From Eledone cirrhosa (taxonomy: Eukaryota): DNA of 64,000 nucleotides. Positions 62,054-62,498 of this stretch are shown here, one piece after another. The stretch covers positions 257,548,001 to 257,612,000 of the forward strand of contig OZ024742.1 in NCBI GenBank assembly GCA_964016885.1. Reading direction: 5' to 3'. The notes under the pieces are model-generated. The model saw only the letters and a list, made by a program, of their open reading frames with translations. It was not told the DNA's origin and ran no database searches. Each line of letters opens with the position of its first letter. Within the stretch, counting starts at the first letter, position 1. Both the position numbers and the translations under genes were made by a program.

Positions 62054-62498
62054 CGAAAAAATAAAACAAAATTTCATTTCCCACTCTTAGTACGGCTGTT
62101 ACTTAAATATAAGTATGTACACGTACATACATATATGTATACAGACGTACAGTAGCATGTATATATATATACGTACATGCACACACATATATATATACAC
62201 GTATGGATTCACCGAACATTTATTATAATGCTCGGTGTGTTTGTAAACAAACATCCCGTATTAAGCCCTAGTGTCTAGCAACCATCGTTGCTCGTTTGTT
62301 CAACACTGAAAAAGGAACGCTGTACTAGTTTCAAACTTATTAACTATCGTCAGCAACGTATACCTTTCTGCCAGATTGTTGAACGTATATACTTACCTCA
62401 TGAATATTAACGGTTGAGTAGCCCAATTTGCATATCGAGTGGGTTAATCAGCCGGGTACACCGAGAATGATAAACGGAAAAATGAAACGAAATTTCAT
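62054..62498 (-). mobile_element. Diverged solo monomer of the retrozyme-like family
   Basis: Collinear with 13420-13910; aaac(g/a)aaatttcat at both ends; (TA)n flanks. Confidence 0.85.
62317..62359 (-). ncRNA. Minimal type I hammerhead in the solo monomer
   Basis: Reverse complement acgttg-CTGACGA-tagttaataagttt-GAAA-ctag-TA-cagcgt. Confidence 0.82.

Follow-up and report, generated by a model that had tools for sequence, protein, structure and literature searches.

We consider it probable that the insert at positions 62054-62498 of the window (here, the whole 64,000-nt stretch of Eledone cirrhosa DNA that was analyzed) is a one-armed, 5'-truncated copy of an abundant non-coding hammerhead repeat, and that it was pasted into a (TA)n run by the reverse transcriptase (RT)/GIY-YIG protein of a Penelope-like element (PLE) made elsewhere. 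The family has the features of non-LTR retrozymes that can be tested on sequence and is likely a non-autonomous passenger of PLEs, a known kind of element. Its insertion ends carry the PLE signature and are thus evidence, at the level of the ends, for PLE proteins as the movers of animal retrozymes, a role that the literature proposes by co-occurrence and homology. When an insert of this family has two arms, these end almost invariably at different sites.

An earlier note on this stretch, made from its letters only, had described a diverged solo copy consisting of one unit plus a terminal repeat of about 14 nt, flanked by (TA)n. The extent and the ends of the insert are as follows.

62054-62498, minus strand: one-armed retrozyme insert of subfamily B, about 1.06 units, with its 5' end at 62498 and its 3' end at site 2 (~62054)
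61262-62053: (TA)n target tract on the 3' side
62497-62605: TA-rich tract on the 5' side
62475-62498, minus strand: 5' copy of the 24-nt end repeat, at the insert start, within the tail hairpin of the upstream unit
62054-62111, minus strand: tail, between 3' site 1 (62112/62111) and 3' site 2, holding the 3' copy of the end repeat (62054-62077)
62100-62203, minus strand: internal TA-rich self-complementary stretch of the unit

The insert lies on the minus strand and, as the note had it, is bounded on both sides by (TA)n tracts. It does hold about one unit with a repeat at both ends, but this repeat is 24 nt long, with 21 out of 24 positions matching between its two copies. No ORF of at least 150 aa lies over the retrozyme copies in the window. 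The visible difference from the array is real, since BLAST gives 69-74% identity between the insert and the array units at 13414-17291. However, the copy is not individually diverged: a search of its own genome (3.0 Gb) with a 295-bp query taken from it returned 3010 candidates, the best 40 scored being 95-100% identical, and it is an ordinary member of its own high-copy subfamily. Compared with one close relative it has 19 substitutions. Two of its private changes are C-to-T (62343 and 62335) and each turns a G-C pair into G.U, which weakens the predicted stem II of its ribozyme, while a C-to-G change at 62268 breaks one pair of a long-range helix. These substitutions, with two weakening stem II and one breaking a long-range pair, point to decay after insertion.

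A 26-mer common to the subfamilies has 34,403 exact matches in the genome, against none for the reversed control. The units are about 420-490 bp long and fall into several subfamilies; the 98 cut-to-cut units that we extracted from loci have medoids of 420-472 bp, and the subfamily medoids are 82% identical over aligned columns. Like a non-LTR retrozyme, the family consists of short tandem units that are non-coding and have one type I hammerhead each, and its copies are numerous, both dispersed and in tandem. It differs from plant LTR retrozymes, in which paired LTRs with a type III hammerhead enclose a unique interior, in that its hammerhead is of type I and its units are in tandem, with no unique interior. 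The reading of a family that is dispersed rather than a local satellite is only partly right: thousands of loci are dispersed, but arrays also grow by local duplication. There is also a second retrozyme-like family in the genome, with a unit of 465 bp that is 66% alike over the best 213 nt (L271-L290, e.g. G000:C2:150544222-150549146). It has the same order of parts, keeps the ribozyme, with a canonical stem II and a GUC cut triplet, shows further paired changes, and shares the tail layout and an octamer described below.

The elements of the RNA that we predict within the insert are the following.

62317-62359, minus strand: predicted type I hammerhead, with stem I at 62354-62359/62317-62322, core at 62347-62353 and stem II at 62333-62346
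62298-62384, minus strand: predicted long rod extending stem I, in which 62377-62384 pairs with 62298-62305
62210-62237, minus strand: hairpin in which four pairs differ on both sides from one subfamily to another
62426-62433, minus strand: octamer-like ATGCAAAT, a candidate promoter element, kept in all aligned subfamilies and in the distant 465-bp family

The segment at 62317-62359 has the core CUGANGA...GAAA, an NUH cut site, three stems, and an open stem I, and is therefore a predicted type I hammerhead, in which self-cleavage is a prediction too (between 62323 and 62322) and two stem II pairs are weakened. Its stem II has a U.U at the base, and its stem III has 2 bp with a palindromic loop. 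No Rfam model matched the window at gathering score, and the 32 weak matches below this score at 62000-62600 are low-complexity and miRNA-like, with no hammerhead family among them; the evidence for a ribozyme is therefore its motif, its fold, and covariation. The catalytic core is intact and internal to the insert, in agreement with the note. Two finer points of the note also held: position N7 is C in this copy and U or A in the array, and a G.U pair of stem I is swapped to U.G (13 GU and 9 UG among 22 segments). Both are characters of the subfamily and not private to this copy. Indeed, the swapped stem I, N7=C, and the usual stem II make up the exact core of 47 out of 170 copies, and the array-type core is found in 57 of them. 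The exact octamer motif occurs in 238 copies and every listed variant in 3 or fewer; we take it to be a promoter element only as a candidate, as snRNA-type promoters, such as that of newt satellite 2, presumably use an octamer of this kind.

The covariation check across copies that the note had proposed was done with our own pair-count test, on 22 natural segments chosen from 95 distinct ones and a structure of 76 pairs. With the caveat that the segments come from a handful of related subfamilies and that the structure was derived from the very sequences tested, 98.8% of the cells are paired, against 31-40% in slid controls, and 9 of the 76 pairs are changed on both sides between subfamilies. 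One of these nine belongs to stem I, and the other eight are outside the ribozyme: the hairpin 3' of it has four, the long-range helix two, and the tail-closing helix and a small hairpin one each. One of five measures, that of "further pair types", was no better than shuffles (468/500). When natural units were folded as circles and compared with 40 shuffles, z was about -11 for the sense strand and -6 to -7 for the antisense strand, so the RNA is predicted to form a highly paired circle, as in retrozymes, in which the ribozyme fold would be available. The predicted rod would keep both ends of a cleaved monomer together. Selection on RNA structure, which the note had suggested for this copy, can be seen between the source sequences of subfamilies and over the whole unit, but not in the 62054-62498 copy.

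We tabulated the start and end points of inserts on the unit, as had been suggested, in two samples: the first 100 matches of the 26-mer on contig C1 (sample 1) and 60 further loci taken in order from the genome-wide list of end-pattern matches (sample 2). The 3' ends of sample 1 fall at two fixed sites about 60 nt apart, both leading into (TA)n. Exact counts over the whole genome gave, for one subfamily B pattern, 2,953 site-2 ends into TATA and 3,106 read-throughs, and 1,587 ends for one site-1 variant. In contrast with the fixed 3' sites, the 5' ends are scattered round the unit. The 79 arms that we curated by eye have a median length of 0.78 unit, 46 of them cross the ribozyme cut site, and arm lengths range from 0.06 to 10 units (the latter in L232). 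Two fixed 3' ends with variable 5' truncation, head-to-head (inverted) arms, partial tandems, a tail on one end, and AT-rich or microsatellite targets, here (TA)n, within which target-site duplications are unreadable, are all typical of PLEs. In L002, L017, and L064, a few arms end near unit position 291-292, which is possibly a minor third site or the result of secondary deletion. An apparent excess of 5' ends just past the ribozyme cut (8 vs 3.3 and 8 vs 4.6) was rejected as an artefact, because the reference unit was cut at this point and the preceding bin is depleted (0 vs 3.4 and 3 vs 4.6).

Two-armed inserts follow a simple rule. When both ends are at a site, 85 out of 86 inserts have one arm at each site, a total made of sample 1 (23), sample 2 (32), and the best-match loci (30 mixed, 1 not), while an independent choice of site would allow at most half of the pairs to be mixed. 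Sample 1 has 33 inverted inserts, among which the 23 with both ends at a site are all mixed, the other 10 being left unassigned by eye. In sample 2, 35 of 61 site-2 ends have an inverted partner, which ends at site 1 in 32 cases, elsewhere in 3, and at site 2 in none; the inserts with one arm (26/61) had the same outcome as the 62054-62498 copy. The best-match loci, scored by eye with unassigned loci left out, gave 30 mixed pairs and a single site-2/site-2 pair (L023). We excluded L080, which has the appearance of a site-1/site-1 pair but whose right arm ends in an internal TA run. No outward-facing site-2 pair was found within 6 kb among 100 listed site-2 ends. The rule extends to the distant 465-bp family (6 out of 6 scorable inserts in 8 loci, of which one is single-armed and one is cut by the locus edge) and to a protein-coding PLE family (4/4 inverted copies). 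It is also obeyed by both two-armed inserts in the window, which are these.

13414-13912, minus strand: inverted arm of a subfamily A insert, ending at site 2
13921-17288, plus strand: tandem arm of the same subfamily A insert, about 6.7 units, ending at site 1, with a duplicated two-unit block
4010-4485: third insert, a short two-armed copy whose left arm ends at site 2 and right arm at site 1

The units alternate in the array at 13921-17288 and in L128, where a two-unit block was duplicated locally or in the assembly. The dimeric circle that this alternation suggested was rejected, since the lag-2 identity spans only about two units.

The arms of one insert agree at subtype markers (e.g. 31/35, 22/23, and 19/19, with about half expected). 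In overall identity, only 20 of 33 inserts have two arms that resemble one another more than they resemble the ten nearest arms of other inserts, and in L073 the arms come from different subfamilies. In 31 of 32 cases the arms are joined with an overlap or a gap within -26 to +19 nt. The shared markers and the single tail per insert could be accounted for by an earlier proposal for PLEs (PMC3846280, PMC8557442), in which the first cDNA folds back and primes its own copying into the inverted arm, and the endonuclease trims the tail off one end. We find this improbable: in at least five inserts (L211, L216, L233, L247, and L270) each arm has sequence missing from the other and neither contains the other, which argues against one being a fold-back copy of the other, arm lengths appear to be independent, and either arm can be the longer one. 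Much less probable still is a satellite that evolves at the DNA level, with solo copies as remnants of arrays shortened by deletion, an option that the earlier note itself had raised. The locally duplicated two-unit block of the window array and L128 is what such a satellite would produce. However, thousands of dispersed loci have in common two exact 3' junctions into (TA)n, which speaks against an origin of solo copies by deletion from arrays; head-to-head arms pair the two sites; and deletion would not hold one end fixed while scattering the other.

The nature of the template is a closer matter. The note had proposed that the layout of the 62054-62498 copy fits reverse transcription just over once around a circular RNA. 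The origin by reverse transcription stands, given the fixed 3' ends, the scattered 5' ends, and the inversions, but a length of just over one turn is only weakly enriched. This layout fits a circle, and uncleaved tandem RNA would give the same one. We regard as rather doubtful the specific reading in which the end repeat marks an RT that completed slightly more than one round of a monomeric RNA circle before it ran into its own cDNA and stopped. In line with it, site-2 arms tend to stop at unit positions 250-300, roughly a complete turn from their start (12 vs 4.6 expected, p=0.002, for a bin picked afterwards as one of 10), young multi-unit arms are nearly uniform (1 difference in 1,321 nt in L105, 0.4% in L091), the ribozyme core and the end-closing rod are conserved, and circles were demonstrated for retrozymes of mussel, coral, and axolotl (PMC7229834). 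On the other hand, arms of 1.0-1.1 units, a class named beforehand, are about twice the background without reaching significance (5/25, p=0.07, in sample 2, and 6 of the 28 arms reaching one unit, p=0.16, in sample 1), and with so weak an enrichment a circular template is not proven. Moreover, site-1 arms also stop at 250-300 (11 vs 5.9, p=0.03) and not after a turn of their own (6 vs 6.4), so the stop appears to be tied to the site-2 region rather than to the length of the turn. This stretch is T-rich and offers microhomology, and the 62054-62498 copy starts at unit position 246, just outside the bin. The stop near site 2 may be due to a protein bound there, to T-rich microhomology, or, if the template is a circle, to a cDNA junction. 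A stronger contender, with a chance that we put somewhat below even, is a linear template, namely tandem RNA of source arrays that is cut only in part or not at all, with no circle necessary for mobility. Ribozyme mutants of an anole PLE insert normally in vitro and uncut RNA is used (PMC11167929), while non-autonomous Chlamys elements form multicopy head-to-tail inserts in a group described without canonical hammerheads (PMC8557442). Long arrays of the source type do exist, such as the 10-unit one above, and the weak stem III suggests, by analogy with axolotl, that monomers may be cleaved slowly. Against linear templates, a fully cut monomer would allow at most 0.5-0.64 unit from both start sites, the catalytic core is kept even in the 465-bp family with its low similarity, and active cleavage and the spread over the full unit would be most simply joined by a circle.

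Considering all of this, PLE-mediated insertion remains our preferred explanation and may proceed as follows. The unit would be transcribed into tandem RNA, perhaps from an internal promoter marked by the conserved candidate octamer. The template would be slightly more likely a ribozyme-cut and ligated circle than uncut tandem RNA, because the conserved cleavage core and the full-unit spread fit a circle, although uncut tandem RNA works in vitro. A PLE protein, probably as a dimer, would cut both strands of a TA run, and both cut ends would serve as primers for reverse transcription at internal positions of the RNA, one of them at site 1 and the other at site 2. The cDNAs would stop at varied lengths and then be joined, with a short overlap or gap between them. 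Synthesis or retention of a single arm would result in a one-armed copy such as that at 62054-62498, whose 24-nt end repeat may indicate that copying halted just beyond one unit. After insertion, copies would decay and some arrays would duplicate locally.

The 85/86 pairing and the shared subtype markers suggest coupled twin priming, and a near-strict pairing of sites with non-nested arms is what coupled priming by a dimer predicts. A more general and still tentative proposal is that one asymmetric RT dimer makes every PLE-type insertion, priming both ends of the double-strand cut on one RNA source, one per start site, this RNA being circular in the case of these retrozymes. If true, the pairing rule would be the genomic trace of the mechanism behind the inverted repeats and tails of PLEs, and retrozymes would be a minimal substrate to test it. 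With the rule and the non-nested arms, the origin of inverted arms and one-sided tails in PLEs becomes testable.

ORFs with RT plus GIY-YIG are present in the genome. We searched 50 GIY-YIG loci (30 chosen for GIY-YIG and 20 for a long ORF) out of 10,596 candidates, and in none of them did a protein-coding PLE have the unit as its terminal repeat. Three of the 50 (L155, L171, and L172) hold units that look like separate insertions, and a look-alike tail met in this search led to the 465-bp non-coding family instead of a parent. The protein-coding PLE family mentioned above (L161, L162, L166, L169, L170, L172, and L129) has an RT, a Cys motif, and GIY-YIG, with a frame of 937 aa in L161, and its 3' ends fall at two places, about 65 nt from each other, that lead into (TA)n. 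An apparent non-canonical minimal hammerhead lies near its end. Several other hammerhead-like motifs recur in the genome (L140, L153, L157, L163, L164, L168, and L173), some of them just after PLE ORFs. Taken at the level of sequence motifs, they indicate that there may be many ribozyme-bearing families in this genome.

The window has other repeats. Broken PLE-like ORFs at 9571-11914 and 6444-7506, both on the minus strand, have YRDD and YYVGST motifs and no significant Pfam match. With them, at 11954/11961, goes a minimal hammerhead-like motif that is palindromic, and a motif related to it is found at 17424. Two LINE-like copies at 33328-42398 are 77% alike and match endonuclease, RT, and zf-RVT. 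In the region 46054-51507, an RT ORF at 48722-49867 is enclosed by two direct repeats of 662 bp (97%), an arrangement that resembles an LTR retrotransposon. Finally, a direct repeat at 63100-63384 and 63716-64000 (99% identical, 616 bp apart) begins beside a TA tract and runs past the window end.

The family resembles the metazoan non-LTR retrozymes as described in PMC7229834, which likewise are non-coding, measure a few hundred bp, are low in GC, carry a type I hammerhead, occur both dispersed and in tandem, and have a predicted circle that is highly paired. The axolotl HHR_Amex2 reported there has the same U.U at the base of stem II and 2-bp stem III. By comparison with that account, the units here have 420-490 bp and an internal TA stretch, and their circles and cleavage, demonstrated for the retrozymes of that work, are predicted from sequence. 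Retrozymes were proposed to be non-autonomous PLE derivatives mobilised by PLE proteins, with monomers, dimers, and multimers that co-occur with PLEs (bioRxiv 10.64898/2026.07.22.740005), as is the case here. The same preprint ties Xenopus retrozymes by sequence to PLE terminal repeats and favours local amplification for tandems; in our family, by contrast, no parent was found among the 50 loci, but the insertion ends bear the PLE signature. A tandem hammerhead repeat is also the basis of newt satellite 2, for which an internal snRNA-type promoter is reported (PMC2220036).

Closest to our observations are the PLEs themselves. The RT of PLEs such as Poseidon of Anolis starts at two adjacent internal sites bounding the tail, and the protein, a predicted dimer, cuts and extends both strands of AT-rich DNA (PMC11167929). 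PLE insertions are described in PMC8557442 and PMC3846280 as truncated, with partial tandems, a tail, and inverted arms, and as located in microsatellites. The family studied here shares the two adjacent internal starts, the AT-rich targets, the 5' truncation, the partial tandems, the inverted 5' arms, and a tail that is often one-ended, whereas it has no ORF and its tail is about 60 nt long, against 30-40 in the PLEs described. In the literature searched, mostly open-access main texts, we found neither a counted pairing rule nor its link to non-nested arms. That a tail tends to be present on just one end has been published before, in qualitative terms, in the PLE papers cited, which ascribe it to resolution by the endonuclease; here the pattern is counted, 85 out of 86, and the arms are not nested in each other.
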